Shown: one piece after another, positions 11,251 through 52,852 of the stretch
Layout of the letters: each line of letters starts with the position of its first letter
Position numbering within the stretch: position 1 is the stretch's first letter
Assembly: GCA_027488755.1 (NCBI GenBank)
Contig: JAIYAZ010000075.1
Coordinates: 64,492-128,491 of the forward strand
DNA: 64,000 bases
Direction of reading: 5' to 3'
From: Verrucomicrobiaceae bacterium
GTDB lineage: Bacteria; Verrucomicrobiota; Verrucomicrobiia; Chthoniobacterales; JAATET01
Translations under genes and position numbers: made by a program
The notes under the pieces: generated by a model
Seen by the model: the letters and a program-made list of their open reading frames with translations, nothing else
Told to the model about the DNA's origin: nothing
Databases searched by the model: none

Positions 11251-11261
<11 letters not shown>
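10134..11261 (+). CDS. mcsB: Protein-arginine kinase McsB (ATP:guanido phosphotransferase)
   Basis: Internal ATG at aa 162 of ORF 9651..11261. Guanidino-kinase active-site signature LTACPTNVGTGMRASAMLHLPGL, and N-terminal VVSSRIRLARNLARTPFP. Confidence 0.85.
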
Positions 11262-13749
<2,488 letters not shown>

Positions 13750-25824: not shown

Positions 25825-26907
25825 TCAGGATTCGGGGAGGGCGCAGACGGCCGTGAGGCGGCGGGCAAAATCGGCAATATTCCCGTGGCGCATCGCGGCC
25901 TCGCGGGCACAGCGACCGATGGACTCGCGGCGGGCGGGGTCGGCGAGGAGACCGTCCAAGGCGCGGCGCAGATCGCCGGGTGAACCGGGCTCGACGAGCA
26001 GAAGGTCGCGCCCGTCGACGATGCCGTCGCCGGTCCACAGGCCGCGCGTGCGGGAAAGGATCACGGGCCGCCCGCAGGCCATCGCCTGGAGCGCGACGCT
26101 TTGACCGGAGGGCTGCAGGGAGTCCTCCAGCGGGACGATCACCGCGAGGGCGCCGCGGTAGAGGTCGCGGAGTTCCTCGTCGGTGACGACCGGGGCATGC
26201 CACGAACCGCGGAGATTTTCGACGTGGGCGGGCAACTCGGGCAGCGGCCGCCGGGTGAGGATGCGGGTGCGGACCGGGGGCGAGGTGACCGCGCGGACGA
26301 GCGTGGCGTAGTCGCGGCGTCCATCGTTACCGACGCTGAGCACATAGTCCCCGGGCGGGGTGGAGCCGGGGGTCCAGAAGTCGACGTCCACGCCGTAGGC
26401 ATTCGCGTGGACGCGCGGGGCGGGAACCCCGCAGGTCTGCACGGTGGCCTCGCGCTCCGATTCGGCGAAGAGCACGACTTGCTGCCGCGCCATCGCGGCG
26501 GCGGTGGCCTGTTGGCGCGCGCCGGCGAGCGGAAAGTTCACGTGTCCACAATGAATGCCGACGAGGCGGGCGCGCACGCGGCCGAGGGATTTCCACCACG
26601 CGAGGGCGTTGGCGTGCGAGGTGGATGCGGCTACGACGACGTCGCGATCCCGAAGGCGGGCGAGCACGCGCCGGGTGGCGGCGATGTGCTCGCCGCGGGT
26701 GCGCACGGGCGTTTGCCGGTCGCGCAGGAGGTTGTAGAGCGCGGCGAGTGGGGAGCGGCGGGGATCCGGCGCGTCGAGGCAGATCACGTCGTGGCCGGCG
26801 CGAGCCATTTCCACGGCGCCGTAGAAAAAGTCCGAAGGACCCTTTCCTTCGCGGGCCTCCTTCCAGCGGGCTTCGCGGCCGCCGGCAAAAACAAACGCGA
26901 CCTTCAC
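25825..26907 (-). CDS. Glycosyltransferase, GT-B fold (GT4-like)
   Basis: 360 aa. MKVAFVFAGGREARW..., C-terminal VIVPLEDSLQPSGQSVALQAMACGRPVILSRTRGLW. Confidence 0.75.
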   Translation of the reverse strand: MKVAFVFAGGREARWKEAREGKGPSDFFYGAVEMARAGHDVICLDAPDPRRSPLAALYNLLRDRQTPVRTRGEHIAATRRVLARLRDRDVVVAASTSHANALAWWKSLGRVRARLVGIHCGHVNFPLAGARQQATAAAMARQQVVLFAESEREATVQTCGVPAPRVHANAYGVDVDFWTPGSTPPGDYVLSVGNDGRRDYATLVRAVTSPPVRTRILTRRPLPELPAHVENLRGSWHAPVVTDEELRDLYRGALAVIVPLEDSLQPSGQSVALQAMACGRPVILSRTRGLWTGDGIVDGRDLLLVEPGSPGDLRRALDGLLADPARRESIGRCAREAAMRHGNIADFARRLTAVCALPES

Positions 26908-27752
26908 GCGCCAAAGATCCGGCGTTTCCAGGGCCGGAGCACGCGCTCAGCCCAGATCACGGGGGCCAGCAGGGCGGTGAAGAGCCCCCCGACCCAGCGG
27001 CCCGGGCGCGAGAGGATCGCAAAATGCGCGGACGAAAACTGCAGCACGCTGGGCAGAAACAGGCGGATGCGGTGGCTGGCATTCACCCAGCGGGCGAGTT
27101 CCTCCATGTCGGGACCGCGGCCGTGAATGATGCGCACCTGGCAGCGCCCGACGGCGGCCGGCATGACGGTGCGGAGATTGTATTCCGGCGGGAGCACGTA
27201 GACCGGGAGCGCGGAGCGGTAGAGGGCCTCGCGGAAGGCGGGCTGGTCGCTGTCCATGCGGCCGGTGGCGGCGACCTCCTCCTCGTAAAGCCGGAGCCAG
27301 TCCTGGAAGAGCGCGATCATTGCGGGGCTGCGGCGATAGGCGAGCACGCCAGTGTTGAGCTCGGCGAAGCAGTTGGGCGTGACGAACGGCCGGTCGTGCC
27401 GGTAGGGCGCGTGCGCGGCGGCGAGCTCAAAGCGGTCGAGCAGGGTGAAGAGATCGTCGAAGGGGGCGCAGGCGAGGGTGTCGGTATCGAGAAAGATCGT
27501 GCGCTCGAACGGCGTCTCGCAGAGCGGAGCGATCTTGTCGATGAAGCTGTGGCGCGGGTTTTCGATGCGCCGGACTTCGTCGAAGACTCCGGCGGGGAGG
27601 TCGGTCTGGTCGGTGTAAAGGACGATGGGCACGCCCGGCAGGTGGCGGCGCACCGAACGGGCGGAGATGAGCATTTCGCCGAGATGGCGACGCCCGGTCG
27701 CGATGTAAAGGATGCCGCGGGAGCGGTCAGCCGCTGGGAGGGCGGAACTCAA
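26904..27752 (-). CDS. Nucleotide-diphospho-sugar transferase-like protein (GT-A, GT8-like)
   Basis: GILYIATGRRHLGEMLISARSVRRHLPGVPIVLYTD and the DXD context RTIFLDTDTLACAPFDDLF. Confidence 0.55.
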   Translation of the reverse strand: MSSALPAADRSRGILYIATGRRHLGEMLISARSVRRHLPGVPIVLYTDQTDLPAGVFDEVRRIENPRHSFIDKIAPLCETPFERTIFLDTDTLACAPFDDLFTLLDRFELAAAHAPYRHDRPFVTPNCFAELNTGVLAYRRSPAMIALFQDWLRLYEEEVAATGRMDSDQPAFREALYRSALPVYVLPPEYNLRTVMPAAVGRCQVRIIHGRGPDMEELARWVNASHRIRLFLPSVLQFSSAHFAILSRPGRWVGGLFTALLAPVIWAERVLRPWKRRIFGA

Positions 27753-28432
27753 GTCGAGCGCACGATCGAGGCCAGCTCACGGCGGGAACGGGCCGCCTCG
27801 AGGATGGCGTCGAGCAGGGTGCTGGTTTTGACGCCGTGGAAGGCGTAGGCGCCACCGGCGGCGAGGGAGACCGCGCGGATGCATTCCCACCAAGAGCGGA
27901 TGGTGTTGCGGGAGTAGCCTTCGTTGGCGCCCTGGAGGTCGAACACGGGGAGTTCGAGGCGACTGGACTGCGCGCTGAGCCAGCGGTCGACATAGCCTTC
28001 CTCGAAAGGATCGAGGGTCGCCTCCTCGGCGAAGCGGCGGAGCGTTTCGGCGTCCATGATCCACGGGAAGTGGTAGAACCAACGGGACGCGAAGCCGCTG
28101 GGGGCCTGGTCGGCAAAGGCGCAGACCTGGAGGCCCGGGCGTGGACGAGGGCGGGAGATGAGGAAGGAATCGTATTCCAGAAACACGTAGTAGTCCGCAT
28201 CGACCTGCAGGCTTTGCTGCATGCCGAAGAGCTGGCGACGGAGCGTGGGTTCGCCCGCCTTGCCGGAGGCTCCGAGGTGCAGGGAGCGGACGCCCTCAAG
28301 GGTCATCGGGCTGTCGCTCGGCGAGACGAGCAGAAGCTCATCGGTGTGGGCGCGCCAGATGGGCAGGTGGCGACGCGCGATGCCGGTGCCCCCGGCGTAT
28401 CCGAATACTGTCGTGCAGACTTTCATGATCAA
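27749..28432 (-). CDS. Hypothetical protein (227 aa), possible GT-A-like
   Basis: Complete coupled ORF. Its only recognisable element is the acidic motif DADYYVFLEYDSFL. Confidence 0.45.
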   Translation of the reverse strand: MIMKVCTTVFGYAGGTGIARRHLPIWRAHTDELLLVSPSDSPMTLEGVRSLHLGASGKAGEPTLRRQLFGMQQSLQVDADYYVFLEYDSFLISRPRPRPGLQVCAFADQAPSGFASRWFYHFPWIMDAETLRRFAEEATLDPFEEGYVDRWLSAQSSRLELPVFDLQGANEGYSRNTIRSWWECIRAVSLAAGGAYAFHGVKTSTLLDAILEAARSRRELASIVRST

Positions 28433-28497: not shown

Positions 28498-29139
28498 TCA
28501 GGCGGCGGCGGGAGGGGTGGCGGTGAGCGGGCGGAGGCGTTCGATGTGCTGGTGGCGCGGCATGAGGTCGATGGGTTTCATGACGCGGTTGCAGTAGTGG
28601 ACGGTCGGGGCGGTTTCCCAGCCGGGCACGAGATACTCCACGCAGGCGCTGAGCTGCTGAAACTCAGATTCATGCTCCTTGAGGATGAGCATGTCGGAGG
28701 TGTGGGCGCGCGGGAAGAAGCGTTCGAGCCAGCCGACCTTTTGCTCGGCGAACCAGCGGACGGCCCGCATGAACTCGGTCTGCGTGCCGCTGACGAGGCA
28801 GGGCACATAGCGGTCGTAGGTGGTAAGCGGGCCGGGCTCGTGCGGCTGGAAGGAGTAGTTGATCACGTCGTAGTCGGACATGAAGCCGCCGCCCTGCTGG
28901 GCCACGGCGACCCAGCGCAGGTAGCACCAGTAGTCGAGGTTGAGGCGGTTGATGCTGGGAAGTTTTTTGAACTTCTCGACCATGGCATTGATCTCGTCGT
29001 CGAAGGTGAGCGACTCGTAGCCGAGCACAACGGGCTCCCAACCCTGGGCCTCCCAGGAACGCTGCCAGAGGGCAATCAGCTCCCGCTCCTCGCGTTCGCG
29101 TTTACCTTCAACGGGGGAATAGAATGTAAAGACCTTCAT
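28498..29139 (-). CDS. Hypothetical protein (213 aa), GT32/Och1-like DXD motif
   Basis: LDYWCYLRWVAVAQQGGGFMSDYDVINY resembles the YxxL..GG.Y.DxD motif of GT32-type transferases. GC content looks slightly lower than its neighbours by eye. Confidence 0.45.
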   Translation of the reverse strand: MKVFTFYSPVEGKREREERELIALWQRSWEAQGWEPVVLGYESLTFDDEINAMVEKFKKLPSINRLNLDYWCYLRWVAVAQQGGGFMSDYDVINYSFQPHEPGPLTTYDRYVPCLVSGTQTEFMRAVRWFAEQKVGWLERFFPRAHTSDMLILKEHESEFQQLSACVEYLVPGWETAPTVHYCNRVMKPIDLMPRHQHIERLRPLTATPPAAA

Positions 29140-29354: not shown

Positions 29355-30190
29355 CCGCGGGAGGACTCCCCGGGCCAGCCGACGACCATGATGGTGCCGG
29401 CGGGAAAAATCCGGAACAGAACGCCGTCCACCAACCGCCGCACCAGGGGGCCGCCCCGGCGGGTGGCGCGGCGGATTTGGTAGGCGAGGTGATTCGCGTC
29501 GAACCAGCCGTGGCGCGCCCGGCCGATCCGCGCGATTTCAGCAAAACGCTCCCAGCCGCCCGTCTCGGACTTGGTCTGGGGATAGCAGCGAAGGGCCGCG
29601 AGGTCGTGGGGAACCATGACGACGGGTCCACGTTCAGCGAGGCGGAGGACCAGTTCCCAGTCCATGGCGTAGGCGAGATTTTCATCGAGCGCGCCGGCGG
29701 CGAGCGCCGTCTCGCGATGAAAAAACATGGCGGGCTGCAAAATGTAAAAGGCGCCGCGCAACCGGCGAACGTCGAAGGGCCGGGGGGCGACCCGCTTGAG
29801 GAGCGTGCCGTCGACGTCGATCTTGCGGCCGCCGCCGTAGACGAGAACGGCGTCGGGATTGTCCTGCAGGGCGGCGGTGACCCGCAGGAGCGCGTCGGGG
29901 AGCAGCTCGTCGTCGGAGTTCAGCCAGCCGGTGTAATCGCCGCGGGCGAGACGCAGCCCCTTGTTGATGGCGTCGCTCTGGCCGCGGTCGGGCTCGCGGA
30001 TGACGCGCAGCCAGGGCAGATGGGCGTAACGGGCGAGGATGTCGGGCGTTGCGTCGGTGGACATCGCGTCGAACACGATCCACTCGAAGGGCGGCGGGTC
30101 CTGCGCGCAGACGCTCGCGATGGTGCGCTCGATGAAGGCGGCCTGGTTCCGCGTGGGCGTGATCAGGCTGATGGTCGGCGCGCCGCTCAA
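29351..30190 (-). CDS. Glycosyltransferase family 2 (paralogue 1 of 3)
   Basis: ISLITPTRNQAAFIERTIASVCAQ...WIVFDAMSTDAT...DRGQSDAINKGLRLARGDYTGWLNSDDELLP. I prefer the TTG at 30190 (TTGA overlap). The track start at 30319 would overlap the upstream gene by 130 nt. Confidence 0.75.
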   Translation of the reverse strand: MSGAPTISLITPTRNQAAFIERTIASVCAQDPPPFEWIVFDAMSTDATPDILARYAHLPWLRVIREPDRGQSDAINKGLRLARGDYTGWLNSDDELLPDALLRVTAALQDNPDAVLVYGGGRKIDVDGTLLKRVAPRPFDVRRLRGAFYILQPAMFFHRETALAAGALDENLAYAMDWELVLRLAERGPVVMVPHDLAALRCYPQTKSETGGWERFAEIARIGRARHGWFDANHLAYQIRRATRRGGPLVRRLVDGVLFRIFPAGTIMVVGWPGESSRG

Positions 30191-31122
30191 AACCGGGTGG
30201 ATCGAATGCCCAACTGCAGGAGCAGACTGCTGACCTGCGACTTGATTTGCTCGCTGGAGTAGATGCGGGCCATGCGCTGGCGGAGCTTGGGATCGGCGTC
30301 CATGTTCGGCCGCAGCCAACCCATTTCCTTGCGCCCGAGGTCGGCGGCTTTCGCGGAGGTTTTCTGGTCCTGGTGAACGCGGAAGCAGCCGAGGAAGGTG
30401 GGCACGCGCACGATGGAGGCACCGGCGTCCTGGAAGCGCTGGAGGAGATCCCAGTCCAGGGCGAAGTGGAAATCGACATTGAGGGAGGCACCGACTTTTT
30501 CCCAGATGCGCCGCCGCCAGAAGAGAGTCTCCTGCGGGACAAAGTCGAAGAACTTGAGCGCTTCGCGGTCGTAGGGCGGGGTGATCCAGCGGCCGATCTC
30601 GCGGTCATCCTCGTTGATGAGGATGCGATGGCCGTAGATGGCATCAACGTCCGGGTGGGTGGCGAAATAGCTGCCGACAAAAAGCAGGGTGCGCGGGAGC
30701 AGGATGTCGTCGGAGTTCAGCCAGGCCATAATGTCTCCGTCGACCATGCCGAACCCCTTGTTGATGGCGTCGCTCTGGCCGCGGTCCTTTTCGGAAATCC
30801 AGCGCAGATCGTATTCGCGGCTGAGGTCGCGCAGCGTGTCGGGCGTGCCGTCGGTCGAGCCGCCATCCACGACCACGTAACGAAGCGCGGGATAGGCCTG
30901 GTCGAGCACGCTCTGAATCGTGCGGCGGATGAACCGGGACTGGTTGAAGCTCGGCGTGACGATGGCGATGGACGGATAGCGCCCGCTGAAGTGCTGCGGG
31001 TCGAGCGTGTCGACGCGGAGCTCGCGTGGCGGGTATTGGCGCAGGTTGCCAATGCGGGTGGGAATCGCGTTGAGGGCATTCTGAAACGAATGACCGAGGA
31101 GATCGCGCAGGGATCGAGACAT
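30187..31122 (-). CDS. Glycosyltransferase family 2 (paralogue 2 of 3)
   Basis: Internal ATG gives 311 aa: SIAIVTPSFNQSRFIRRTIQSVLDQAYPALRYVVVDGGSTDGT...DRGQSDAINKGFGMVDGDIMAWLNSDD...FFDFVPQETLFWRR...FALDWDLL. Confidence 0.85.
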   Translation of the reverse strand: MSRSLRDLLGHSFQNALNAIPTRIGNLRQYPPRELRVDTLDPQHFSGRYPSIAIVTPSFNQSRFIRRTIQSVLDQAYPALRYVVVDGGSTDGTPDTLRDLSREYDLRWISEKDRGQSDAINKGFGMVDGDIMAWLNSDDILLPRTLLFVGSYFATHPDVDAIYGHRILINEDDREIGRWITPPYDREALKFFDFVPQETLFWRRRIWEKVGASLNVDFHFALDWDLLQRFQDAGASIVRVPTFLGCFRVHQDQKTSAKAADLGRKEMGWLRPNMDADPKLRQRMARIYSSEQIKSQVSSLLLQLGIRSTRF

Positions 31123-31148: not shown

Positions 31149-32984
31149 TCAGGCTCCGTGGCGGGCCCGCGAGCGTGCGAGCCATTTCTCGTAAAGGCGG
31201 TATTCGAGCGGGTTCTCGCGCTGGAGGCGGGCCCGCAGATCGTCGGTGAGGGAAATCAGCTTTTTGAAGCGATCGCCGCCGCCGACATTCTTGCGTTCGC
31301 TGATTTCGGGCAGCCCCAGTTCGCGCATGAGGAGGGACATGTCCTGGTCGAAGGTTTTGAGGGTCGAGACCATCCAGAATTCCTCCAGCACGCCGTCGAC
31401 GATGTCGTGGAGCGTCTCCGGCGAGTAAAGCCAGTAGTCGATCCCGAGGTAGTTGTGGGCGATCCAGAAGACCTGGTAGTCGCGCGGCTCGTTGGCATAC
31501 CACTCGTCGAAGCTGATGACCGGGAGTCCGCGCCGCTCGTGGACGTGCATCCAGAAGTTGTAGTGCGAGACCATGCGTTCGGCGGGTTCGCGCAGGGTGA
31601 TGATCTCGCGGGCCGTTTTGCCGGGAATCGCGCCGCAAAAGGCGCGCTGCACGGCGTGACCAAAGACGACGCGCGCCCGCGAGCGGAGGCGGGCGTCGCG
31701 CCACTGGAAGGGCAGGCTGTGGTCGCGCAGGATGCCCGCTTCATCGGCGAGGTGACGCACGTGGACGTATTCGCCGTAGCCGGCGAGATGTTCCCGGAAG
31801 TGGTGGGCCACGGAGGAGCCGGCGGTCTTCGGAATGTGCGGAAAAACGTAGACGATGTCCGCCCGGCTGGGCGGCGGGGAGGACCACTTTTGCCGCCATT
31901 CGGCGCGTTCCGACTCCGGCAACACGGGTCCGGTGCAGCGGGCCGCCACGCGGTCGAGCAGGTCGGCATCAAGGCACAGGTCGCGCAGTCCCGCCCAACC
32001 GGCCGGAATGGCGGGCGGCGGTGTGAGCCACCCCGGCAGTTCGGGCGCGGCATGCTCGCGTTTGAGGTGGAGCGCCAGCAGATGCAGGCTTTCCAGGCGG
32101 GCGGCAAAGAAGCGGACCGGCCCGTGGCTCCATTCCGAAAAGCCCTTCGCCCCGATCTCGACGGCGGGCGGATTCTCCAGGCCAAAGAAGCGCGAAACTT
32201 CCGCGAGGAACGTCGCGCCATCCGCGGCCCGCGCCAGGGCGGGGCCGAGCGGGGTCGCCGCCGGATTCGCCACCGCGGCCCGCAATCCCTCCTCGAAGGG
32301 TGCGACGGTCGCCGCCTCGCCGTTCACGCGGACAAATTCCTCGGCGCAAACCTCGATCGGGTCGCGCAGGACCACAGCGACGGTGAGCGGAGGCAGGTTC
32401 ATCCCGGCCCCGGCCAGCGAGGCCCGCACCTGCACCAGCGCCGCAAGCGCGCGGGCGCGTCCTTCGGGCAGAGGGAAGGCAACGGGCACCAGCGCGGCCC
32501 CGGCTCCGGTGACCTTCAGAATGTCCGCGGCCTGCTGCGCCGACGAATCGGCCCCGGACACGGCCAGCGTGAGCGGCCCGAAGAGCACCCGTTCCAGAAA
32601 CGCCCCGTCGCTGCCGGCGAGGAGGTCATCCATGCCGGGAATGGCGGCCTTTTGCGCGGCGTCGGCCAGCGCCGCCCGCGCGACGGTGCCGAGGGGCGCG
32701 GAAACTTCGTCGGTCGTGGGCTGGGGCACTCCGGGCACGAAGGCCCGCAGAAAGGCGAGGCCGGCGAGAAAGTCATCAAACGTGTAGCCGGAGCGCGCAA
32801 AGGTGCGGAGCACGTCGGCCTCCGCGGCCGAGCCGGTGTAACCCACCGAGGTGAGGAAGCGATGCGCGCGCGTCGCGTTCTCGGCGGACATGCGGTTGCG
32901 CAGCAGATCCGCCGCGAGGGCGACGAGCCGGCGCGCGCGGTCCGCGCGGCGGGAGAGACGAAGAGAGAAGGAGGAATTCATCAC
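31149..32984 (-). CDS. Large sulfotransferase: ~375-aa unknown N-domain plus ~235-aa sulfotransferase domain
   Basis: C-terminal domain has IVYVFPHIPKTAGSSVAHHF (5'-PSB) and ITLREPAERMVSHYNFW (3'-PB). I recognised no motif in the N-terminal 375 aa. Confidence 0.75.
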   Translation of the reverse strand: MMNSSFSLRLSRRADRARRLVALAADLLRNRMSAENATRAHRFLTSVGYTGSAAEADVLRTFARSGYTFDDFLAGLAFLRAFVPGVPQPTTDEVSAPLGTVARAALADAAQKAAIPGMDDLLAGSDGAFLERVLFGPLTLAVSGADSSAQQAADILKVTGAGAALVPVAFPLPEGRARALAALVQVRASLAGAGMNLPPLTVAVVLRDPIEVCAEEFVRVNGEAATVAPFEEGLRAAVANPAATPLGPALARAADGATFLAEVSRFFGLENPPAVEIGAKGFSEWSHGPVRFFAARLESLHLLALHLKREHAAPELPGWLTPPPAIPAGWAGLRDLCLDADLLDRVAARCTGPVLPESERAEWRQKWSSPPPSRADIVYVFPHIPKTAGSSVAHHFREHLAGYGEYVHVRHLADEAGILRDHSLPFQWRDARLRSRARVVFGHAVQRAFCGAIPGKTAREIITLREPAERMVSHYNFWMHVHERRGLPVISFDEWYANEPRDYQVFWIAHNYLGIDYWLYSPETLHDIVDGVLEEFWMVSTLKTFDQDMSLLMRELGLPEISERKNVGGGDRFKKLISLTDDLRARLQRENPLEYRLYEKWLARSRARHGA

Positions 32985-34984
32985 GCAGGTCCTCCGGCCG
33001 GGGCGGCAGCCGCATGGCGGCTTTGCGCCCGCTCCAGCCAGTGGCGGTAGAGTTTGAAATCGAGCGCGTTGTCGGCCTCAAGCCGTTCGCGCAGGGCGGC
33101 GTCGGCCTCGAAGCGCACAGCGTGGGTGACGCCGCCGACATTCTGTCGACCCTTCATCGGCGGAAGCTGGAGGGCGTCGAAGAGCCGCTGAATGTCGGCT
33201 TCGAACGTGGGGATCGTGCAGACGAGCCAGAAGCCCTCCAGCATCGCGGCGACGCGCTCATACAGCGCGGCCGGCTCGGAGGCGGCGGGATCGAGTTCGA
33301 GGTAGTTCCGCGCGAGCCAGTGGAGGTGGTAGTTGCGCGGCTCGCCGGCATACCACACGTCGAACGGCACGGGTTTTTGCCCGCGTTTTTCGAGCACGTT
33401 CATCCAGAAGTTGTAGTGCGAGACGGTGCGATCCACCGGGTCCCGCAGCGTGGTGATCTCCCGCGCGATTTTTCCGGGCACGAGCGCGGCGTGGCGGCGA
33501 ATGATGCCATGCCCGAAGAGCACGCGGGCGTGCGCCCGTTCGCGGCGGTCCCGAAGCGGGAAGGGCGTGCGTTCGCGGAGTTCCTGCCGGCTCGTGTAAT
33601 CGATGGGGATGTGAACGTAGGCGCGGTCGTATTCGAGGTTGGTCTTGAGGTGGTAGTGCACCGAGGAGCCGGCGGTTTTCGGAATGTGCGGGAAGACGAA
33701 GACCTCCCCCTCCTCGGCGGCGCCGGGCGTGGACCACTTGTGCAGGATCGCCGCGGATTCCTCCGCCGAAAAGAGCCGCTGCGGCAGCGGCTGCGCGCCC
33801 GCGGCGGCCAGGGTTTCCGCCGGGAGAGTCCGCGCGGGCGGCAGGCAGAATTCCGGCGCGAACAGCGTTACGGTTTGCACTAGCCGGGCGCGATCCATGA
33901 CCTCGGCCTCGGGATCGATCACGCCGGCATTTTCGAGCAATCGGCGGGCGACCTGGTGGAGGTTTTCGACGCGGGCGAGCGTGCAGCGAACGCCGTCGTT
34001 CTCGGTCGAGCGCACGGGTTGCGGGGCGGGATCGGCGAACACGGCCGGGGCGTCGCCGGTGAGTTTTTCCACCAACCGCTGCGCCGCCGCGGGATCGGTC
34101 GCGGCGCGGTAAAGGGGGGCGAGGGTTGCACCGGCATCCTCCGCCGCCTGCCAGGCGGGGGCAAAGTCCCGCGCGTCGTGGCCCAGATGCGCCCAGTGCG
34201 CGAGCGCGACGGACACCGGGTCGCCTCCGAGCACGAGAATCTCGATGCGACCGACCGGCCAGCCGCTCCGGGCCGCCGTGCGGCGCAGCGCGATCAGGTG
34301 GCGCGCGAATTCTTCGACTTCGGGCGGATTTTCCGCGGCCGATTCCAAAAGCAGGGCCCCGGCGTAGGCCATGCGGGGCAACGCGGCCCCCTGGCGCACG
34401 GCGGCGGGCACGTGCGCCGGCGGCGGGCAGAGTTGTTCGAGAATGGTCGCCGCGCGCAGCAGGAGCCCGGCGGAGGGAGCGATCACAATCACGATGGGCT
34501 GGAAGAGCAGCGCCGGGCCGTCCTCGAACACAAAGTCCTGCCGCCAGCCCGAGGGACGCCAGCGCCACTGGCGCTCGGGAGCCGCAAACACCGAGGCGAA
34601 ACGAGGCGCCCAGTCCGAGCGGTGGGCCTGGAGGAGCATGGCCTGCGCGAGGGCGCGCCGCCGCAGGGGCATGCCGTCATTGCCAAACCGACGGGCGCGT
34701 TGCGCGGCGGTTTCCGGCGGACCGCCATCGAGGGCGGCCCCCTCCCAATCCTCAATCGTCTTCTGCAGTTGGAGGATGGAGGCGAACTCGGAGAAGGGGC
34801 AAAAGATGCCCGCGCGCCGGTCCAGCGCCGGATCGGACGCGAACGGCCGTTCGCCGCGATCCAGGAGCGTGCGGGCATGGTCCAGCGCGGCGTAGTCGTG
34901 GTTCGCGTCGATTAACCGGTTGAGCAGGCGGTAAAACGCGCGGGCCCGGCCAAGCAGCGAGGGGGAGGATTCAGAGTGGCTCAT
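32981..34984 (-). CDS. Large sulfotransferase paralogue: ~425-aa unknown N-domain plus ~240-aa sulfotransferase domain
   Basis: Internal ATG (aa 43): MSHSESSPSLLGRARAF. C-terminal VFVFPHIPKTAGSSVHYHL and TTLRDPVDRTVSHYNFW. The sulfotransferase domain aligns with the downstream neighbour along its whole length. Confidence 0.75.
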   Translation of the reverse strand: MSHSESSPSLLGRARAFYRLLNRLIDANHDYAALDHARTLLDRGERPFASDPALDRRAGIFCPFSEFASILQLQKTIEDWEGAALDGGPPETAAQRARRFGNDGMPLRRRALAQAMLLQAHRSDWAPRFASVFAAPERQWRWRPSGWRQDFVFEDGPALLFQPIVIVIAPSAGLLLRAATILEQLCPPPAHVPAAVRQGAALPRMAYAGALLLESAAENPPEVEEFARHLIALRRTAARSGWPVGRIEILVLGGDPVSVALAHWAHLGHDARDFAPAWQAAEDAGATLAPLYRAATDPAAAQRLVEKLTGDAPAVFADPAPQPVRSTENDGVRCTLARVENLHQVARRLLENAGVIDPEAEVMDRARLVQTVTLFAPEFCLPPARTLPAETLAAAGAQPLPQRLFSAEESAAILHKWSTPGAAEEGEVFVFPHIPKTAGSSVHYHLKTNLEYDRAYVHIPIDYTSRQELRERTPFPLRDRRERAHARVLFGHGIIRRHAALVPGKIAREITTLRDPVDRTVSHYNFWMNVLEKRGQKPVPFDVWYAGEPRNYHLHWLARNYLELDPAASEPAALYERVAAMLEGFWLVCTIPTFEADIQRLFDALQLPPMKGRQNVGGVTHAVRFEADAALRERLEADNALDFKLYRHWLERAQSRHAAAAPAGGPA

Positions 34985-34997
34985 CGCAGGGAAAGCA

Positions 34998-36170
34998 TCA
35001 GATCGAACGGCTGCGAATGCCGGCGCGCATCGCGAGCGCGCAGAGGCGGGAGCGGGCCATTTCGCGGAGCGCGGCGCGGGCGGCCTCGTCGCCCTGGCAT
35101 TGGTCGGCACCCGTCATCGCCCGCACGCGTTTCATCTCCGCATCGCCCACGGTGTTGATGATGCTGGAGGTTTTCTGGCTCGTGTGGACGCGGAAGAGGC
35201 CAAGAAAATAGGGCAGGCGGACGATGCGGCAGCCGGCGTCCCGGAAGCGGACGAGGAGATCCCAGTCGAGCGCGAATTGAAACGAGGTATCGAGACCTCC
35301 GACCTGCTCCCACGCGGAGCGGCGCCAGAACAAGGTCTCCTGCGGCACAAAGTCAAAGAACGTGAGCGCGCGCGGCTCGTAGGCCGGGAGAATCCAACGG
35401 CCGATCTCGCGGTCCTCCTCGTCGATGATCACCCGGTGGCCGTAAACGACGTCCACGTCGGGGTTCGCGCGGAAGAAATCCACGATGTGGGGCAGCGCCC
35501 CGGGCATGAGCATGTCGTCGGAGTTCAACCAGGCCATGATGTCGCCGGTGGTGCGGCGAAAGCCCTTCACCACGGCGTCGGACTGGCCCTTGTCGGGCTC
35601 GGAGACCCAGGACATCGCCGGGCAGGCCGCGGCTTTTTCGGCGAGGACCTCGGTGGTGCGGTCGGGCGAGGCGCCATCCATCACGATGTATTCGAGCGCG
35701 GGATAGCCCTGCCCGATCACGGAATCAATCGTGCGCCCGATGAACTGGGCCTGCTTGAAGCTGGGGGTCACGATGCTGACCAGCGGCAGATCGCCGCTCA
35801 GCGCGGGGCGGGCGGGAAAACGCTCGGGCCGGAGCGGCACGGGGTCGTGCTGGCGAAGGTTGCCAAGCCGTTGACCGCTGCGGGCGAAGGCGGAGTAGCA
35901 GTTCCAAACCCACCGCTGCGGGCGGCGGATGAGGTGGTAGTGCAGACCGCGCCAGCACTCCGGCCAGGCGATGCCGGGGTTGGTGACGTAGAACAACGGG
36001 CTGCGCATCTGCCAGTGGCGCGTGGCGCGCATGAGTTCGCGGAGCGCACGCTCGCGTTGATCGAGGGATTGGCGGAGTTCCTCGTTTTCGCGTCGGAGTT
36101 CCTCGACGGACATCTCCTCGACGGGCGGGCGCGGCGGGGTTTCGGCCCGCTTGGCGGAGCCGGTGCTCAT
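34998..36170 (-). CDS. Glycosyltransferase family 2 (paralogue 3 of 3) with N-terminal coiled-coil extension
   Basis: N-terminal EEMSVEELRRENEELRQSLDQRERALRELMRA. Then VSIVTPSFKQAQFIGRTIDSVIGQGYPALEYIVMDGASPD...GDIMAWLNSDD...FFDFVPQETLFWRR...FALDWDLL. Confidence 0.85.
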   Translation of the reverse strand: MSTGSAKRAETPPRPPVEEMSVEELRRENEELRQSLDQRERALRELMRATRHWQMRSPLFYVTNPGIAWPECWRGLHYHLIRRPQRWVWNCYSAFARSGQRLGNLRQHDPVPLRPERFPARPALSGDLPLVSIVTPSFKQAQFIGRTIDSVIGQGYPALEYIVMDGASPDRTTEVLAEKAAACPAMSWVSEPDKGQSDAVVKGFRRTTGDIMAWLNSDDMLMPGALPHIVDFFRANPDVDVVYGHRVIIDEEDREIGRWILPAYEPRALTFFDFVPQETLFWRRSAWEQVGGLDTSFQFALDWDLLVRFRDAGCRIVRLPYFLGLFRVHTSQKTSSIINTVGDAEMKRVRAMTGADQCQGDEAARAALREMARSRLCALAMRAGIRSRSI

Positions 36171-37558
36171 TCGGCAGCCTCCCCGGTCGCGGGCGGTTTG
36201 ACTTCCACGGCCTGGTCGTTGAGCTGCCAGACGCGGGGTTGAAAGAAGGGGCCACCGACGCCGTCCCGAATATACGTCACGTCGAATTTCGGCCCCTGGA
36301 AAGCCGCGAGGAGTTCGCGCCGCGAGTGCAGGTGCGCGGTGACCTTGTAGCGGGCCGGCGGGAGGGCAAGCATCGGCAGGGCGATTTGGAGCCGGTGTTC
36401 ACCGGGGGTCAACGGCCCGAGGACCACCCCGTCGCGCCCCGAATTGAGCGTGAGCACGACGACTTCCTGCTGCGTGGCGGCCACGCTGTCCACGCTGGGC
36501 AGGCGGTAGATCGTCACGCGGGCCAGCATTTGCTCAATCGGCTTGGCGACGTCGCAGGTGATTTCAATCGTGCAGACCGAGCCGCACTCCACGCGCGAAA
36601 CCACGGTGCCGCTCGCATCGAGGAGCTCCATGTTCCGGACCTCCAGGATCTGTTCCTCGCTTTCGAGGAGTTCCTCCTCCGCCGGCTCGTTGGCACGCGA
36701 GCGGTTCCGCGGCGCGCGCCGGGTGAGGTAGAGCTCGCGCTCGTATTGTTCGATGACGGCGGGCGCGCCGCCGGTCGCCCGCACCTCGCCCTTGACCATG
36801 TAGATGGCCTGGTCGCAGACGGTGAGCAGGAGATCCGGCGAGTGGTGGACCATGATCATCGCCGTGCCTTGCGAGCGGAGGTTTTCGATCGCCTCCACGC
36901 ATTTTTCCCGGAACTTCAAATCACCGACGGCCAGGACCTCATCGATGAGCATCACGTCGGGCTGGGTGCAGATGGCGCAGGCAAAGCCGAGTCGGGCCAC
37001 CATGCCCGAGCTGTAACTCTGCACGGGGGCATCAAGCGCGTAGCCGATCTCCGCGAAGTCGACGACCTGGTCGAAACGGTCCTTGATCTCCCGCTCGGTC
37101 AGGCCGAGCACGCTCATGTTGATGTGAATGTTCTCGCGGCCGGTGAGCACCGGAATGAAGCCCGCGCCGAGGGCGAGGAGCGGGGCCATGCGGCCGCGGA
37201 CGACGACGCGGCCGGTCGTTGGTTTCACGAGCCCGGAGAGCACGCGCATGAGCGTGGTTTTCCCGCAGCCGTTGAGGCCGACGAGGCCGAGCGTTTGTCC
37301 GGCGTGGAGGGAAAGGTCGACGCCCTGGAGCGCCCAGAATTCCTTGGCCCGCAGCCGGGAGAGGTCCTGCTTGCGGCCAAAGACTTCGCGGCCGATGTCG
37401 GTGACGCCGTAGAGCAGCGAGCGCTTCAGGTCACGGCAGAAGCGCTTCGACACGTCGGTGGCTTCGATCACCGGTGGACGGGCCTGGGTCGGGCCGGCGG
37501 GTGCCGCATCGGGAGGGCCGGCCGGCGTTCCGGGGGGCATGATTTGCGTGGATTCCAT
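36167..37558 (-). CDS. wzt: Polysaccharide ABC exporter ATP-binding protein (Wzt/TagH type) with extended C-terminal domain
   Basis: Walker A GLNGCGKTT, signature YSSGMVARLGFA, Walker B VMLIDEVLAVGD. About 160 extra C-terminal residues (nt ~36170-36661) are rich in beta-strand-like segments, as in Wzt carbohydrate-binding domains. Confidence 0.85.
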   Translation of the reverse strand: MESTQIMPPGTPAGPPDAAPAGPTQARPPVIEATDVSKRFCRDLKRSLLYGVTDIGREVFGRKQDLSRLRAKEFWALQGVDLSLHAGQTLGLVGLNGCGKTTLMRVLSGLVKPTTGRVVVRGRMAPLLALGAGFIPVLTGRENIHINMSVLGLTEREIKDRFDQVVDFAEIGYALDAPVQSYSSGMVARLGFACAICTQPDVMLIDEVLAVGDLKFREKCVEAIENLRSQGTAMIMVHHSPDLLLTVCDQAIYMVKGEVRATGGAPAVIEQYERELYLTRRAPRNRSRANEPAEEELLESEEQILEVRNMELLDASGTVVSRVECGSVCTIEITCDVAKPIEQMLARVTIYRLPSVDSVAATQQEVVVLTLNSGRDGVVLGPLTPGEHRLQIALPMLALPPARYKVTAHLHSRRELLAAFQGPKFDVTYIRDGVGGPFFQPRVWQLNDQAVEVKPPATGEAAE

Positions 37559-39170: not shown

Positions 39171-40337
39171 CTATCGCCGTTTGATTAGCCGGCGCGCGAA
39201 ACGGCCGATGCGCGTTGTCAGAGACACATTTGCCGCATCGATCTCAGCCTGCCGAAGACGTCGGATCTCCTCCTCCAGGCCGCCGGCATGCTGCTGCCAG
39301 GCGTCCCGCCCCTTGGTGAGTCGATCGACCAGATCCCGCAACCGTTCGAGCTCGGCGGATTGTCCGGACCAGCCAAGGCGCTCCGCCCAGGTGGAAAACG
39401 GCAGTTCGGGAGAGTCCTCGGCCCCCCAGCCGAGGAGACGGGCGACCGTCACGGGGTCCTTTTGGCTTGCCCCTCCGAGTTGCTCCCACGCCCAGGCGGG
39501 GTCGCCGACGCCGGCGTCCGGCGGGGCGAAAAACTGCGGAAACGTCTCGCGCACGTAGCCGCGGTGGAGGAGATCGAGATCCCGCTCAAGGATCTGCGGA
39601 TGCTGCTTGTAAAAGGGCTGGTTCTCGTAGTCCTCCCGCCGAAAAACCGGCGGCGGGCCGAAGATCGAAACGCGGCAGCCGAGAAGGGCCGCGTAGGGCA
39701 CGTGGGATCCGATCCAGTTGCTTGTGACGTGGGTGAAGCGGGAGAGCAGGGAGCGGACGCGGCGGAGGGCATTGCGATCGCGAACCTCCGCGCCGTTCAC
39801 CCACGGGATGCCGCGGGCGGCGAGGCCGCCGATCCAAAGGTTCTTTTTTACGCAGCTCGGGTGGATGCAGGCGGCCACGTGGGCAAATCGGGCGAGGTGG
39901 GGATCGATGGCCTCGAAGTAGGCCTGCTCGTCCGGGATGTGCCGGGTCTCGTCGAGCGAGTGGAACGGCATGATGAGAAGACTGTCGGGCAGACGGGGCC
40001 CATCGAATGCGGCCGGCACATAGAGAAACGGGGCGCCGACCGCGACGGACAGCGGCGCCTGATTCGCCCGGAGGAAGGCGGCATCATTCTCCCGGTGGGT
40101 GAGCACGGCCCGGCCGGGACCAGGACCCTGCCAGAGGAACGTTTCGACAAACTGCGGGGGATTGTAGTGCCAGCCATGGGTCCAGACCGCCTGGGGCGTG
40201 GGCGCCGCGGACAGCCCGAGCGCGGCAGCAATGAGGTCGGTTGCGCCGTAGAAGTCCGCCTCGTTGCGCGGCTCCTGGGGCGATACCGGCGGCAGCGAGC
40301 GGAGGATTTCCGCGAACCATGCCGGCGGCTGACTCAT
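39171..40337 (-). CDS. Hypothetical protein (388 aa) with C-terminal coiled coil and basic amphipathic tail
   Basis: Internal ATG (aa 51) overlapping the upstream stop. No motif recognised in the core. C-terminal SAELERLRDLVDRLTKGRDAWQQHAGGLEEEIRRLRQAEIDAA...RIGRFARRLIKRR. Confidence 0.55.
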   Translation of the reverse strand: MSQPPAWFAEILRSLPPVSPQEPRNEADFYGATDLIAAALGLSAAPTPQAVWTHGWHYNPPQFVETFLWQGPGPGRAVLTHRENDAAFLRANQAPLSVAVGAPFLYVPAAFDGPRLPDSLLIMPFHSLDETRHIPDEQAYFEAIDPHLARFAHVAACIHPSCVKKNLWIGGLAARGIPWVNGAEVRDRNALRRVRSLLSRFTHVTSNWIGSHVPYAALLGCRVSIFGPPPVFRREDYENQPFYKQHPQILERDLDLLHRGYVRETFPQFFAPPDAGVGDPAWAWEQLGGASQKDPVTVARLLGWGAEDSPELPFSTWAERLGWSGQSAELERLRDLVDRLTKGRDAWQQHAGGLEEEIRRLRQAEIDAANVSLTTRIGRFARRLIKRR

Positions 40338-48903: not shown

Positions 48904-48916
48904 GACCGGGGCGACC

Positions 48917-51105: not shown

Positions 51106-51989
51106 GAAATACGGGGAGAGGCGGCGAGCCACTCGTGAATGCAGGATTCGAGGGCGATGCGCAAGTTTGATGGCTCCCAGTCGGGGAGCAGGGAGCGAAG
51201 GGTGGTGATGTCCGCCAACCAGCGCGAGGGATTCCCCGCGTGCGACTGACCGGCAAAGTGAAGGGTGGCGTCGGGGCGCAGTAGATCGCGCAGGGTGACG
51301 GCTAGGGTGTGAACGGAAATGGCCCGGCCGGCCGCGACGTTCACCGCCTGAAAGCCCGGGGCCTGCGGCGCGAGCCGGGCGATGAGCCGAACGGTTACCG
51401 CGGCGGCGTCCCGCTCTTCGATGTAGTCCCGCTCCTCGTGGCCGGTGCCGCGGAGGCTGACGCCGCCCGCGCGAAGCTGCTCGAAGATTTCCCAGACGAG
51501 GAGGCGGCGTTGGTGGGGGCCGAAGATGGAAAAGTAGCGGAGGGCGAGCACAGGGAGGCCGAAGCAGGCGGCGTATTCGCGGCCGAGGGTCTCGGCGAGG
51601 ACCTTGTGGAAGCCGTAGGGGGATTCGGGGCGGAGGTCGGCCGTCTCCGCGACGGGCAGCGCCGCGGGCGAGCCGTAGACGGCGGCGCTGGAGGCGAGGA
51701 CGACGGCGGGGCGGAGGCCGGATGACCGCACGCCTTCGAGCACGCGCTGGGTGAGGGCGGTGGAGGCGGCGAAGTCCGCGTCGGGGTTCGTGAGCGAGTC
51801 GCCGACCGAGGCGGAGCCGGCGAAGTGGAGCACGACGTCGGGCGCGGCGGCGCGGACGCAGGCGGCCCATGTGGCGGGGTCGCGCAACTCGGCGCGGCCG
51901 GCGGGGAGGACAGTCCAATCGGCCGCGGTGGCGGCGCGGGCGACCGCGCCGCCGAGGAAGCCGGTGGTGCCGGTGACGAGGACTCTCAT
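51102..51989 (-). CDS. NAD-dependent epimerase/dehydratase-family SDR
   Basis: Internal ATG gives 295 aa: MRVLVTGTTGFLGGAV, SSAAVYG, PESPYGFHKVLAE (YxxxK). Confidence 0.8.
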   Translation of the reverse strand: MRVLVTGTTGFLGGAVARAATAADWTVLPAGRAELRDPATWAACVRAAAPDVVLHFAGSASVGDSLTNPDADFAASTALTQRVLEGVRSSGLRPAVVLASSAAVYGSPAALPVAETADLRPESPYGFHKVLAETLGREYAACFGLPVLALRYFSIFGPHQRRLLVWEIFEQLRAGGVSLRGTGHEERDYIEERDAAAVTVRLIARLAPQAPGFQAVNVAAGRAISVHTLAVTLRDLLRPDATLHFAGQSHAGNPSRWLADITTLRSLLPDWEPSNLRIALESCIHEWLAASPRIS

Positions 51990-52852
51990 GCGCTCCAGCG
52001 CTCGACGAGGAGGGGGATGGACACGCGGAGCACGACGAGCCCGAGGATGAGCAGCGGGATCGTGATCGCGACGACGAGGAGGAAGTTCGGCAGGAGCGTG
52101 AGGGGCTGTCCGGCGATCATTTCCCGGATGGTGACGATAAGGGGCGAGACGGGGTTGAGCCGGACGGTGGTGGCGAAGAGCCCGGCGTAGTGGGGATAGG
52201 GGTAGGCGATGGGCGTGATGGTGAGCCAGACCATGGTGGCGATGGGCAGGGAGTTGCTCACGTCGCGGTAGAGCATGCCGATGGGGGCGAGGAAGAGCCC
52301 GAGCATGGTGCCGAGGGCGACCAGCGCGGCGACGCCGAACGGCACGAGCAGGAGGGAGGCGGTGACGGGAACTTGGAACCAGATGAAGGTCGCGGCGATG
52401 AGCACGGTCTGCACCGTAATGGTGACGGTGAGCTTGCAGAGGTCGGCGATGAGGATGGATTCGCGGGGGAAGCGGACCTTGGTGAGCAGGCCCTTGTTCG
52501 ACTGGAGCGCGCTCATTGGGCCGCTGAGCGAGGCGGTGAAGATCTGCCAGAGCGAGACGCTGATCAGGACGAAGGCGGGATAGGGCAGATGGGTTTCGCC
52601 GGGGTTTACGAGGTTGTTTGACCGGGCGACGGTGAGCATGACGGCGAGGAAGATCGGGGGACCGACCAGCCACACGAGGCCGAGAAGGGACTGGCGGTAT
52701 TGGGCCTTGATGTCGCGGATGGCGAGGGCGACGCCGAGTTTGCGGCTCTGGACGATGTCGGTGAAGAGCTCGCGGAGGAGGCGGCCCGGGCTGCGGATCG
52801 CGCTTTCGGCGGAGTAGATGCTGACCTGGTGGTGACCACTTTCGAGACTCAT
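51986..52852 (-). CDS. wzm: Polysaccharide ABC exporter permease (ABC-2 / Wzm type)
   Basis: 288 aa. AIRDIKAQYRQSLLGLVWLVGPPIF is the ABC-2 N-terminal signature. Six hydrophobic segments. Confidence 0.85.
   Translation of the reverse strand: MSLESGHHQVSIYSAESAIRSPGRLLRELFTDIVQSRKLGVALAIRDIKAQYRQSLLGLVWLVGPPIFLAVMLTVARSNNLVNPGETHLPYPAFVLISVSLWQIFTASLSGPMSALQSNKGLLTKVRFPRESILIADLCKLTVTITVQTVLIAATFIWFQVPVTASLLLVPFGVAALVALGTMLGLFLAPIGMLYRDVSNSLPIATMVWLTITPIAYPYPHYAGLFATTVRLNPVSPLIVTIREMIAGQPLTLLPNFLLVVAITIPLLILGLVVLRVSIPLLVERWSA

Follow-up and report, generated by a model that had tools for sequence, protein, structure and literature searches.

Paralogous predicted sulfotransferases fused to degenerate NKWYS-like domains in a bacterial surface-glycan cluster

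The two adjacent genes STA and STB (genes A and B) probably encode a pair of paralogous glycan O-sulfotransferases that use PAPS in the cytoplasm and belong to a Wzm/Wzt surface-glycan pathway, each with an N-terminal extension, a pseudoenzyme domain and a catalytic C-terminal domain; we give this assignment a probability of about 0.65. As read from sequence, each gene joins a putative sulfotransferase to a disabled copy of another, unrelated sulfotransferase, which is a rare design. The C-terminal domain resembles HS2ST and Sulfotransfer_2, has an intact 5'-PSB, 3'-PB and catalytic histidine, and is predicted to carry out the sulfation chemistry. The middle domain appears to descend from a stand-alone NKWYS-type sulfotransferase-like enzyme and is predicted to be a pseudoenzyme, because the PAPS-binding P-loop, the invariant histidine and the 3'-phosphate serine have been lost. 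The presence of this rare fusion in a cell-surface sugar-polymer cluster suggests a sulfated surface glycan in this bacterial group. We found no such architecture among characterised bacterial sulfotransferases, in agreement with the original prediction made from the DNA alone. The features are listed in Table 1, with positions in the window (the whole 64,000-nucleotide stretch that was analysed).

Table 1. Positions of STA, STB, their domains and neighbouring glycan genes
Feature	Position	Strand	Remarks
STB (gene B)	32981..34984	(-)	667 aa, ATG start; N-extension, dead NKWYS-like domain and active Sulfotransfer_2-like domain (putative)
STB N-terminal helical extension	34508..34984	(-)	aa 1-~159; conserved within B family
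STB degenerate NKWYS-like domain	33713..34507	(-)	aa ~160-424; reverse HMM, AF2
STB C-terminal catalytic domain (predicted)	32981..33712	(-)	aa ~425-667; Pfam Sulfotransfer_2 E 0.0058, residues 427-525
STA (gene A)	31149..32984	(-)	611 aa from GTG; three-part architecture as STB (putative)
STA N-terminal helical extension	32583..32984	(-)	aa 1-~134; family-specific
STA degenerate NKWYS-like (PF10364) domain	31866..32582	(-)	aa ~135-373; hhalign, reverse HMM, pLDDT 75-93
STA C-terminal catalytic domain (predicted), HS2ST / Sulfotransfer_2-like	31149..31865	(-)	aa ~374-611; profile, Foldseek, pLDDT 80-95
Downstream GT2 glycosyltransferase	30187..31121	(-)	same operon, 27-nt spacer
GT2 glycosyltransferase	34998..36170	(-)	390 aa; Pfam Glycos_transf_2 2.9e-24; always between wzt and STB
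Wzt-type ABC ATPase	36167..37558	(-)	~190-aa C-terminal extension; Pfam ABC_tran 2.8e-21
Wzm ABC-2 permease	51986..52852	(-)	Pfam ABC2_membrane; upstream end of ~36-kb glycan cluster

The genes are adjacent tandem paralogs, as had been proposed, and both the ORFs and the junction (GCG TGA TGA ATT) read on the minus strand, with the genes overlapping at GTGATG. The predicted 4-nt overlap holds when STA starts at the GTG; from the ATG, the TGA of STB overlaps STA by 1 nt. The database copy of STA (P0001) starts at this ATG (32981, one codon after the GTG), giving 610 residues of an identical protein, and the database copy of STB (P0026) is likewise identical. BLASTP aligns residues 147–609 of STA with 194–657 of STB (34% identity, E 1e-67), with about 50% identity over the C-terminal ~240 residues, which bears out the alignment of paralogous C-terminal domains. 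The shared blocks FPHIPKTAGSS, ARVVFGH/ARVLFGH, VSHYNFWM and the pair PGKTAREIITLREP/PGKIAREITTLRDP (STA/STB) are present as quoted originally, but STA contains EEFWMV, not EGFWMV. Orthologs of STA (P0002–P0007) show 46–77% identity across 93–98% of its length; those of STB (P0027–P0031) show 39–47% across 97–99%. The database gene call of P0002 is 35 codons too short.

The C-terminal domain is, by profile and predicted fold, a putative divergent branch of Sulfotransfer_2 (HS2ST-like), detectable by profiles only and with invariant PAPS-binding and catalytic motifs. The gathering threshold of Pfam PF03567 is not reached (17.2 bits for STB against 22, and 13.5–17.1 bits for the orthologs); weak Sulfotransfer_2 matches occur in eight of nine family members, the Pfam scan gives no such match for STA, and NCBIfam gives no match. 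The domain profile aligns with HS2ST (4ndz/3f5f) at E 7e-4, with PKTAGSS, the histidine of FGH and RDPxxRxVSHY in register. All 13 family members have the 5'-PSB sequence FPHIPKTAGSS unchanged, and it lines up with VPKTAST of HS2ST; the 3'-PB, TLR(E/D)PxxRxVSHY with invariant R, P, R and S, aligns with IRDPIERLVSYY. The invariant histidine of F-G-H (H442 in STA) is aligned with the second histidine of the HGH motif of HS2ST, which we take to be the catalytic base His142. The AF2 model of STA has the sulfotransferase α/β fold in this domain, and Foldseek matches the model to HS2ST (4ndz, E 9e-5) and 5t03 (E 1.7e-3), then to dozens of SULTs, with HS2ST, HS6ST and many SULTs heading the list for the C-terminal domain. 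The profile pulls in over 100 proteins of PF03567 ('sulfotransferase family 2'), and its neighbours comprise PF03567 and PF06990 proteins. Some other P-loop-type transferase or kinase, with sulfotransferase-like motifs by coincidence, would fit the sub-threshold Pfam score, the missing match in STA and the empty NCBIfam result, but three independent motifs in register with HS2ST, a Foldseek list made up almost wholly of sulfotransferases and the profile neighbours make this highly improbable. The sulfotransferase label, although sub-threshold in Pfam, is thus backed by profile and fold evidence. The domains share with HS2ST (3f5f, 4ndz) and PF03567 the 5'-PSB loop (PKTxxS), the 3'-PB (RDPxERxVS-Y), the catalytic histidine of GH in register and the fold, but are only ~15% identical and lie under the Pfam gathering score. 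Unlike HS2ST, the proteins are bacterial, predicted to be cytoplasmic, have no Golgi stem and carry ~375–425 additional N-terminal residues.

These large N-terminal regions upstream of each sulfotransferase domain are conserved and coding. They are rich in alanine and leucine, as noted originally (19% Ala and 13% Leu in STA, 19% and 12% in STB). GC3 is 0.80–0.88 and GC2 ~0.55 along their entire length, a coding signal throughout; the 42-codon GTG extension 5' of the ATG of STB shows a non-coding GC pattern. Compared with a 75%-identical ortholog, dN/dS is 0.30 for the N-terminal extension, 0.12 for the middle domain and 0.026 (~0.03) for the C-terminal domain, and all three parts are under purifying selection. 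The concern raised beforehand, that translation really starts close to the catalytic domain and the regions are misannotated, has next to no probability, because the codon-position GC signal continues through the whole region, the orthologs align from residue 1 and dN/dS is far under 1; the tight junctions with neighbouring genes also oppose it, and no evidence in its support was found.

Most of each N-terminal region, where nothing recognisable had been reported, is homologous to NKWYS (PF10364), and the two regions, described as only weakly similar, are homologous to each other at the profile level. The NKWYS homology of the fused domains emerges with a custom profile only; the Pfam PF10364 model gives no match at E ≤ 1 in STA, STB or eight orthologs. 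An exhaustive profile search with the domain finds ~60 stand-alone proteins of 250–310 residues (E 1e-8 to 1e-3, the lowest value being 9e-9), and PF10364 is the family of all 44 stand-alone relatives scanned. The hhalign comparison of the STA middle domain (A3) with the NKWYS alignment gives a probability of 99.2% (E 6e-20) over 235 columns, including the P-loop strand. In the reverse direction, the NKWYS HMM matches the fused domains with E values from 1.4e-21 (P0027) to 9.5e-6 (STA, 14.8 bits), STB scoring 19.2 bits (E 4.5e-7); the maximum in 2,600 shuffles was 5.8 bits. AF2 prediction of STB from a 52-sequence alignment gives pLDDT 80–97 for residues 110–420. PF10364 members are stand-alone proteins of ~250–310 residues, which Pfam labels 'putative capsular polysaccharide synthesis protein'. 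Judging from motifs and weak profile matches, they are probably sulfotransferases: they contain GKVGS and VRDPxxRxxS (the sulfotransferase PAPS motifs), their sole recurrent secondary Pfam matches are Sulfotransfer_1 to _4, and their best PDB matches are HS3ST (E 0.016) and HS2ST. The hhalign probability between NKWYS and the C-terminal domain is 53%.

The homology spans essentially the entire NKWYS protein. Core residues D93-P94, G169, R184 (in 7 of 10), E186, L188, E252 and W260 are kept in the fused domains, as is the C-terminal FYxxxERxxxxxWS motif. In contrast, K18, G20, S21, H41, S100, W146, N210 and Y221, 84–100% conserved in NKWYS, are absent in all ten fused domains examined, and R92, the 3'-phosphate arginine, is kept in two (STA and its closest ortholog, P0002). 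Thus, unlike NKWYS proteins, the fused copies are without GKxGS, H41, S100, W146, N210, Y221 and, in most, R92, and they never stand alone. The MAFFT alignment suggested an alternative P-loop remnant farther upstream ('AIGYRGQARG' / 'RRFGTFG'), which leaves some doubt about where the domain begins. Since the family-conserved residues are replaced, we read the middle domain as a putative pseudo-sulfotransferase, a degenerate derivative of NKWYS rather than a functional member. A bifunctional double sulfotransferase, whose middle domain would use non-canonical residues, is very unlikely: the RDP arginine survives in STA and P0002, the domain has invariant residues of its own (R186, G193 and H300) and a tandem protein (P0091) contains two motif-intact NKWYS domains, but the P-loop Lys/Gly/Ser, H41 and the 3'-PB serine are missing in 10 of 10, the arginine in 8 of 10, and the domain evolves ~5 times faster than the C-terminal domain. 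As nucleotide-binding and catalytic residues are lost, a non-catalytic role in substrate recognition or as a scaffold is the most plausible for the presumed dead domain. Its fold may have been preserved because the domain binds the acceptor glycan, or because it supports the active domain as a scaffold or an in-built pseudo-dimer partner.

The N-terminal extensions are predicted with low confidence (AF2 pLDDT <50 for residues 1–112 of STA and <55 for 1–105 of STB). The exhaustive profile search finds no relatives of the STA extension beyond the family, and this extension resembles none of the glycan cluster's other proteins.

Wherever the order is visible (5 of 5 loci), wzt is followed by the GT2 gene and STB. 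The GT2 is syntenic in L003, L004, L005 and L015 with 62–69% identity, and the order NadE-Wzm-Wzt is common to the window and L005. The best PDB match of Wzt is that of A. aeolicus (E 2e-51, nucleotide-binding domain only). No locus of sufficient length lacks either STA or STB; since both paralogs are retained, they may serve two different sulfation positions. Neither protein has a signal peptide or a segment confirmed as transmembrane (the most hydrophobic 19-residue stretch forms a strand and helix of the core, modelled with high confidence). As PAPS is cytoplasmic, the undecaprenyl-linked glycan would be sulfated in the cytoplasm, before export. No PAPS-synthesis genes are located within the 64-kb window.

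A different reading is that sulfate is a chain-terminating, export-licensing cap, in which STA and/or STB would sulfate the non-reducing end of the completed polymer, the C-terminal extension of Wzt would recognise the cap, and the dead domain or N-terminal extension would sense or measure the chain. ABC-transporter O-antigens have such terminators, WbdD in E. coli O9a and the β-Kdo transferase WbbB in K. pneumoniae O12, and in both clusters these sit directly after wzt. Like STA and STB, they are multidomain cytoplasmic modifying enzymes encoded beside a wzt whose product has an extra C-terminal domain; unlike them, they use methyl/phosphate or Kdo rather than sulfate chemistry, and there is no homology. 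The ~190-residue extension of Wzt with its weak Wzt_C match, and the position of GT2, STB and STA directly after wzt in every locus, are in keeping with a cap, as is the A. salmonicida ORF with a sulfotransferase domain that also adjoins wzt, directly after it (PMC4483657). However, no sulfate is reported for the A. salmonicida O-antigen, the Wzt_C match (26 bits) is under the Pfam cut-off of 30.4, and the extension has no PDB sequence match. The methyltransferases and the nonulosonic-acid module of the cluster are equally good candidates for a cap, and a single cap needs fewer than two sulfotransferases. We consider the cap unlikely. Less likely again is the fuller proposal, in which the ABC-transporter-dependent surface glycan of this Verrucomicrobiota lineage would bear sulfate as a terminal 'finished' mark, the fused dead domain reading or positioning the chain end and the extended Wzt reading the mark. 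If true, chain termination and export licensing would here use a chemistry not described before, and a pseudo-sulfotransferase would for the first time have a defined role in bacteria.

Returning to the preferred assignment as glycan O-sulfotransferases, a close likeness at the cluster level is the synechan (xss) cluster of Synechocystis 6803, where two non-identical sulfotransferase genes (xssA and xssE) also lie amid many glycosyltransferases and the eight-sugar repeat carries two sulfates (PMC8205485). The synechan pathway is Wzx/Wzy, in contrast to Wzm/Wzt here. The same paper states sulfated polysaccharides to be known only from cyanobacteria. The STA/STB family is very rare, with 13 clusters at 90% identity and one named source, Verrucomicrobiae. 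In the same phylum, Pontiella (Kiritimatiellae) produces sulfated glycosaminoglycan-like exopolymers and has a cluster rich in GT2 and GT4 genes that includes putative glycan sulfotransferases (PMC7356697); these are PF13469 (Sulfotransfer_3) proteins, unlike STA and STB, and differ in lineage and cluster organisation.

The tandem paralogs STB and STA (geneB and geneA; Table) are flanked by two GT2 genes. The stop of STB overlaps the start of STA (junction GCG-TGA-TGA-ATT), 13 nt separate the upstream GT2 stop codon from the ATG of STB, and 27 nt lie between the stop of STA and the start of the downstream GT2 gene; the four genes form one tight operon. The proteins share 34% identity (A147-609 with B194-657, E 1e-67, BLASTP), rising to about 50% over the last ~240 residues. 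The original prediction of tandem paralogous sulfotransferases with large, Ala/Leu-rich N-terminal regions is confirmed, the composition included; the sequence blocks it quoted are present, except that STA reads EEFWMV instead of EGFWMV. A true start near the sulfotransferase domain, raised as an alternative, is rejected because of the codon-position GC, the ortholog alignment (which begins at residue 1) and dN/dS. Throughout both N-regions, GC is 0.80-0.88 at the third position and about 0.55 at the second, and the 42 codons upstream of the STB ATG have a non-coding GC pattern. With a 75%-identical ortholog in locus L013 as reference, dN/dS of STA (Nei-Gojobori) falls from 0.30 (residues 1-130) through 0.12 (131-372) to 0.026 (373-610); the ranking alone is reliable, as dS is near saturation. 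The N-regions are translated and constrained. The public call of this STA ortholog, P0002 (575 aa), is too short at the N-terminus; starting 35 codons earlier, at an in-frame ATG ('MASRSARS...'), it has 610 aa and is colinear with STA.

Each paralog carries, besides its motif-complete HS2ST-like domain, a helical extension and an NKWYS-type domain that has been inactivated, and is encoded beside wzt and a GT2 gene in a conserved Wzm/Wzt cluster. The C-terminal domain of STB reaches 17.2 bits with Pfam Sulfotransfer_2 (cut-off 22), that of STA has no Pfam match, and NCBIfam has no match for the domain; weak Sulfotransfer_2 matches occur in eight of nine family members. A profile of nine family C-domains matches heparan sulfate 2-O-sulfotransferase (HS2ST; 3f5f, 4ndz) with E 7e-4. 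In this alignment, PKTAGSS falls on the 5'-phosphosulfate loop, the invariant His of FGH on the second His of HGH, and TLR(E/D)PxxRxVSHY on the 3'-phosphate motif. With the AF2 model of full-length STA (pLDDT 74 overall, 80-95 in the C-domain) as query, Foldseek lists HS2ST (E 9e-5) and HS6ST as well as numerous cytosolic SULTs. Among the matches to the C-domain profile are more than 100 stand-alone proteins (220-330 aa) that carry the annotation PF03567 or PF06990, 'sulfotransferase family 2'. On the basis of the motif alignment to HS2ST, the Foldseek matches and the PF03567/PF06990 neighbours, we accept the C-domain as a divergent, motif-complete predicted PAPS-dependent sulfotransferase. 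It has the motifs and predicted fold of HS2ST and Sulfotransfer_2 enzymes, although not a Pfam score above threshold, and would be predicted to work as they do.

The N-regions were thought to hold nothing recognisable, and Pfam, NCBIfam and PDB sequence searches indeed gave no match; a custom profile overturns this. An HMM of ten N-regions, searched exhaustively against 1.84 billion representative proteins, reaches about 60 stand-alone proteins outside the family (250-310 aa; E 9e-9 to 1e-3); the best alignments span almost the entire protein, and most span the C-terminal two-thirds. All 44 of those scanned belong to Pfam PF10364 ('NKWYS, putative capsular polysaccharide synthesis protein'). 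Profile-profile comparison of the N-domain with NKWYS gives 99.2% probability (E 6e-20, 235 columns; A 135-373 with NKWYS 24-281 of 294), and the alignment takes in the first strand and the P-loop position. In the reverse direction, an HMM made exclusively from stand-alone NKWYS proteins gives the fused domains up to 66.8 bits (STB ortholog P0027), with 19.2 for window STB and 14.8 for window STA; three of 13 (P0003, P0006, P0007) score no better than shuffles. A compositional artefact of the Ala/Arg-rich sequence is rejected by 2,600 composition-preserving shuffles (maximum 5.8 bits). The N-domain as a degenerate duplicate of its own C-domain is likewise rejected, since hhalign gives the two profiles a probability of 0.1%; the two domains derive from distinct sulfotransferase families.

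Ten fused domains were compared with the 44 NKWYS proteins at positions with 84-100% conservation in the latter. K18, G20 and S21 of the P-loop, H41, S100, W146, N210 and Y221 are absent from all ten, and R92 is present only in window STA and its closest ortholog. The fold-core residues D93-P94, G169, E186, L188, E252 and W260 are retained, as is R184 in seven of ten. The protein-level rate of the middle domain is roughly five-fold that of the C-domain, and purifying selection persists. Residue loss with a faster rate under purifying selection is the pattern expected of a pseudoenzyme domain, and the fused NKWYS-like domain would accordingly be classed as a degenerate pseudoenzyme. Homologous to PF10364 yet lacking its conserved residues, it reads as a derivative of that family, not a functional member.

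PF10364 itself may be mis-described, its current label being merely that of a putative capsular polysaccharide synthesis protein. NKWYS proteins carry the motifs (Y/F)QMGK(V/T)GS and V(R)DPxxRxxS, their recurrent secondary Pfam matches are Sulfotransfer_1 to _4 only, and HS3ST3A1 (E 0.016) and HS2ST come out best in PDB sequence searches with them. Alignment with the C-domain of the STA/STB family is weak and covers the two PAPS motifs (hhalign 53%, E 1.4e-4). Judged by these motifs and matches, PF10364 very probably represents a sulfotransferase family that has gone unrecognised; our literature search found no mention of NKWYS or PF10364. The Pfam model spans only the C-terminal half of the stand-alone proteins (P0036-P0098). 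One other locus (L012) has the gene order NKWYS-GT2-NKWYS-Sulfotransfer_3. P0091 (580 aa) has two tandem NKWYS domains with GKVGS and R(D/E)P motifs intact in both, an 'all-active' counterpart of the active-plus-dead fusion.

The first ~130 residues of STA and ~160 of STB are helical with low model confidence. These extensions are conserved within the family, and the exhaustive HMM search found no relatives outside it. Comparison with the remaining cluster proteins revealed no similarity that would indicate a common docking module, and no further sulfotransferase-like genes were found in the cluster. MAFFT points to a possible alternative P-loop remnant within the extension, so that the N-terminal boundary of the NKWYS-like domain is provisional. 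Residues ~158-176 of STB were considered as a transmembrane segment and rejected, as they form a high-confidence core strand and helix.

The family is rare. Word-index searches gave seven clusters for STA and eight for STB, the exhaustive search five full-length representatives at 50% identity, and a metagenome scan two further loci; the scan of GTDB species representatives found no member, and its matches were limited to distant stand-alone relatives of the C-domain in Alphaproteobacteria. Just one member carries an organism name, that of a Verrucomicrobiae MAG.

STA and STB belong to a minus-strand glycan cluster of ~36 kb, which starts with Wzm, a nonulosonic-acid module (PseB-like, DegT, GH57-like, NeuB, CMP-sugar synthetase-methyltransferase fusion, ATP-grasp), a methyltransferase, a protein without annotation and a GT4, and continues with Wzt, GT2, STB, STA, two GT2s, three unannotated proteins and several GT4s. 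The nucleotide-binding domain of Wzt is nearest to A. aeolicus Wzt (E 2e-51), and its ~190-aa C-terminal extension matches Wzt_C below threshold. The order Wzt-GT2-STB is invariant in all five loci with a visible upstream side (window, L003, L004, L005, L015). STA directly follows STB in the window (L001 is its own sequence), L003, L004, L013 and L014, and a methyltransferase and a GT4 are inserted before STA in L005 and L015; both genes occur in every locus whose contig is long enough to show both. The window and L005 have a BipA-NadE-Wzm flank in common. No PAPS-synthesis genes were found within the 64-kb window.

Table. Coordinates of the features discussed (positions in the window unless a locus is named)
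Feature	Position	Strand	Remarks
STB (geneB)	32981-34984	-	667 aa, ATG start
STA (geneA)	31149-32984	-	611 aa from GTG; database copy starts at ATG 32981, one codon later
GT2 between wzt and STB	34998-36170	-	~125-aa N-terminal region
Unannotated protein	26904-27752	-	282 aa, no Pfam match
Unannotated protein	27749-28432	-	227 aa, no Pfam match
Unannotated protein	28498-29139	-	213 aa, no Pfam match; DxD-like 'FMSDYDVIN'
ORF between GT4 and methyltransferase	39171-40487	-	438 aa, no Pfam match
ATP-grasp/LAL_C2	41496-42755		nonulosonic-acid module
Fusion protein	42752-45004	-	750 aa; CTP_transf_3 cytidylyltransferase, Methyltransf_23, C-methyltransferase C-terminal domain
NeuB	45998-47026		nonulosonic-acid module
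GH57-like	47023-48948	-	641 aa; partial GH57 match alone (E 1.6e-10, residues 54-164)
DegT	48917-50254		nonulosonic-acid module
PseB-like	50104-51918		nonulosonic-acid module
Hybrid PAS histidine kinase-response regulator	5450-8695	+	ordinary flank
ClpB	11251-13749	+	ordinary flank
DUF6600 protein	15338-16804	-	ordinary flank
BipA	55863-57677	-	ordinary flank
Kup potassium transporter	58557-60470	-	ordinary flank
STA ortholog P0002	L013:1146-2981
Polytopic membrane protein after STA	L003:12013-13647; L004:8242-9873; L005:16355-17983
NKWYS-GT2-NKWYS-Sulfotransfer_3	L012:2176-6005

Because PAPS is found in the cytoplasm and STA and STB lack signal peptides and transmembrane segments, the two would be expected to act there, sulfating a lipid-linked glycan prior to its export; each may serve a different sulfation position. 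The dead domain could be an acceptor binder, or a built-in pseudo-dimer or scaffold. The earlier interpretation is partly supported: the fused architecture and the constrained N-regions hold, but the N-region is recognisable as an NKWYS homolog. A non-catalytic part in substrate recognition or scaffolding would be the likeliest role for it. Sulfate might possibly act as a chain-terminating cap read by the extended Wzt, an idea with which the location of the genes downstream of wzt and a comparable gene order in A. salmonicida (PMC4483657) would agree, although methyl or nonulosonic-acid caps are equally possible. The nearest system-level analogue, the synechan xss cluster, also has two sulfotransferases but belongs to a Wzx/Wzy system (PMC8205485), whereas the window cluster is Wzm/Wzt.

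Sulfated glycans are rare in bacteria and have been stated to be known only from cyanobacteria (PMC8205485); PMC7356697 describes prokaryotic glycosaminoglycan sulfotransferases as unknown and reports sulfated exopolymers for Pontiella, of the same phylum. With two dedicated sulfotransferases in a conserved Wzm/Wzt cluster, a Verrucomicrobiota lineage is predicted to make a surface glycan that is sulfated. The architecture of STA and STB looks like a fused active-plus-dead enzyme pair, and an active enzyme joined to an inactivated one of a different sulfotransferase family would be a naturally occurring case in which a pseudoenzyme has come to serve as an accessory domain. Our literature search brought up neither a bacterial sulfotransferase described as carrying a fused pseudo-sulfotransferase domain nor any work on bacterial pseudo-sulfotransferases.

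Several other cluster proteins merit mention. The three consecutive unannotated proteins recur with the cluster in L003 and L015, where their identity is 53-81%, well above the 39-48% of the sulfotransferases; they are probably unrecognised glycosyltransferases or modifying enzymes. The GH57-like protein occupies an odd site for a glycoside-hydrolase-like protein, between NeuB and the aminotransferase. The genes after STA in L003, L004 and L005 encode a ~543-aa polytopic membrane protein (no Pfam match) and a ~245-aa GT2, a combination that is absent after STA in the window and looks like a GT-C/ArnT-like and polyprenyl-phosphate glycosyltransferase pair. Residues ~18-52 of the GT2 preceding STB form a charged heptad-like stretch (EELRRENEELRQSLDQRERALRELMRA) with a weak SIKE match; this stretch may form a coiled coil of the kind present in proteins for O-antigen polymerisation and termination.
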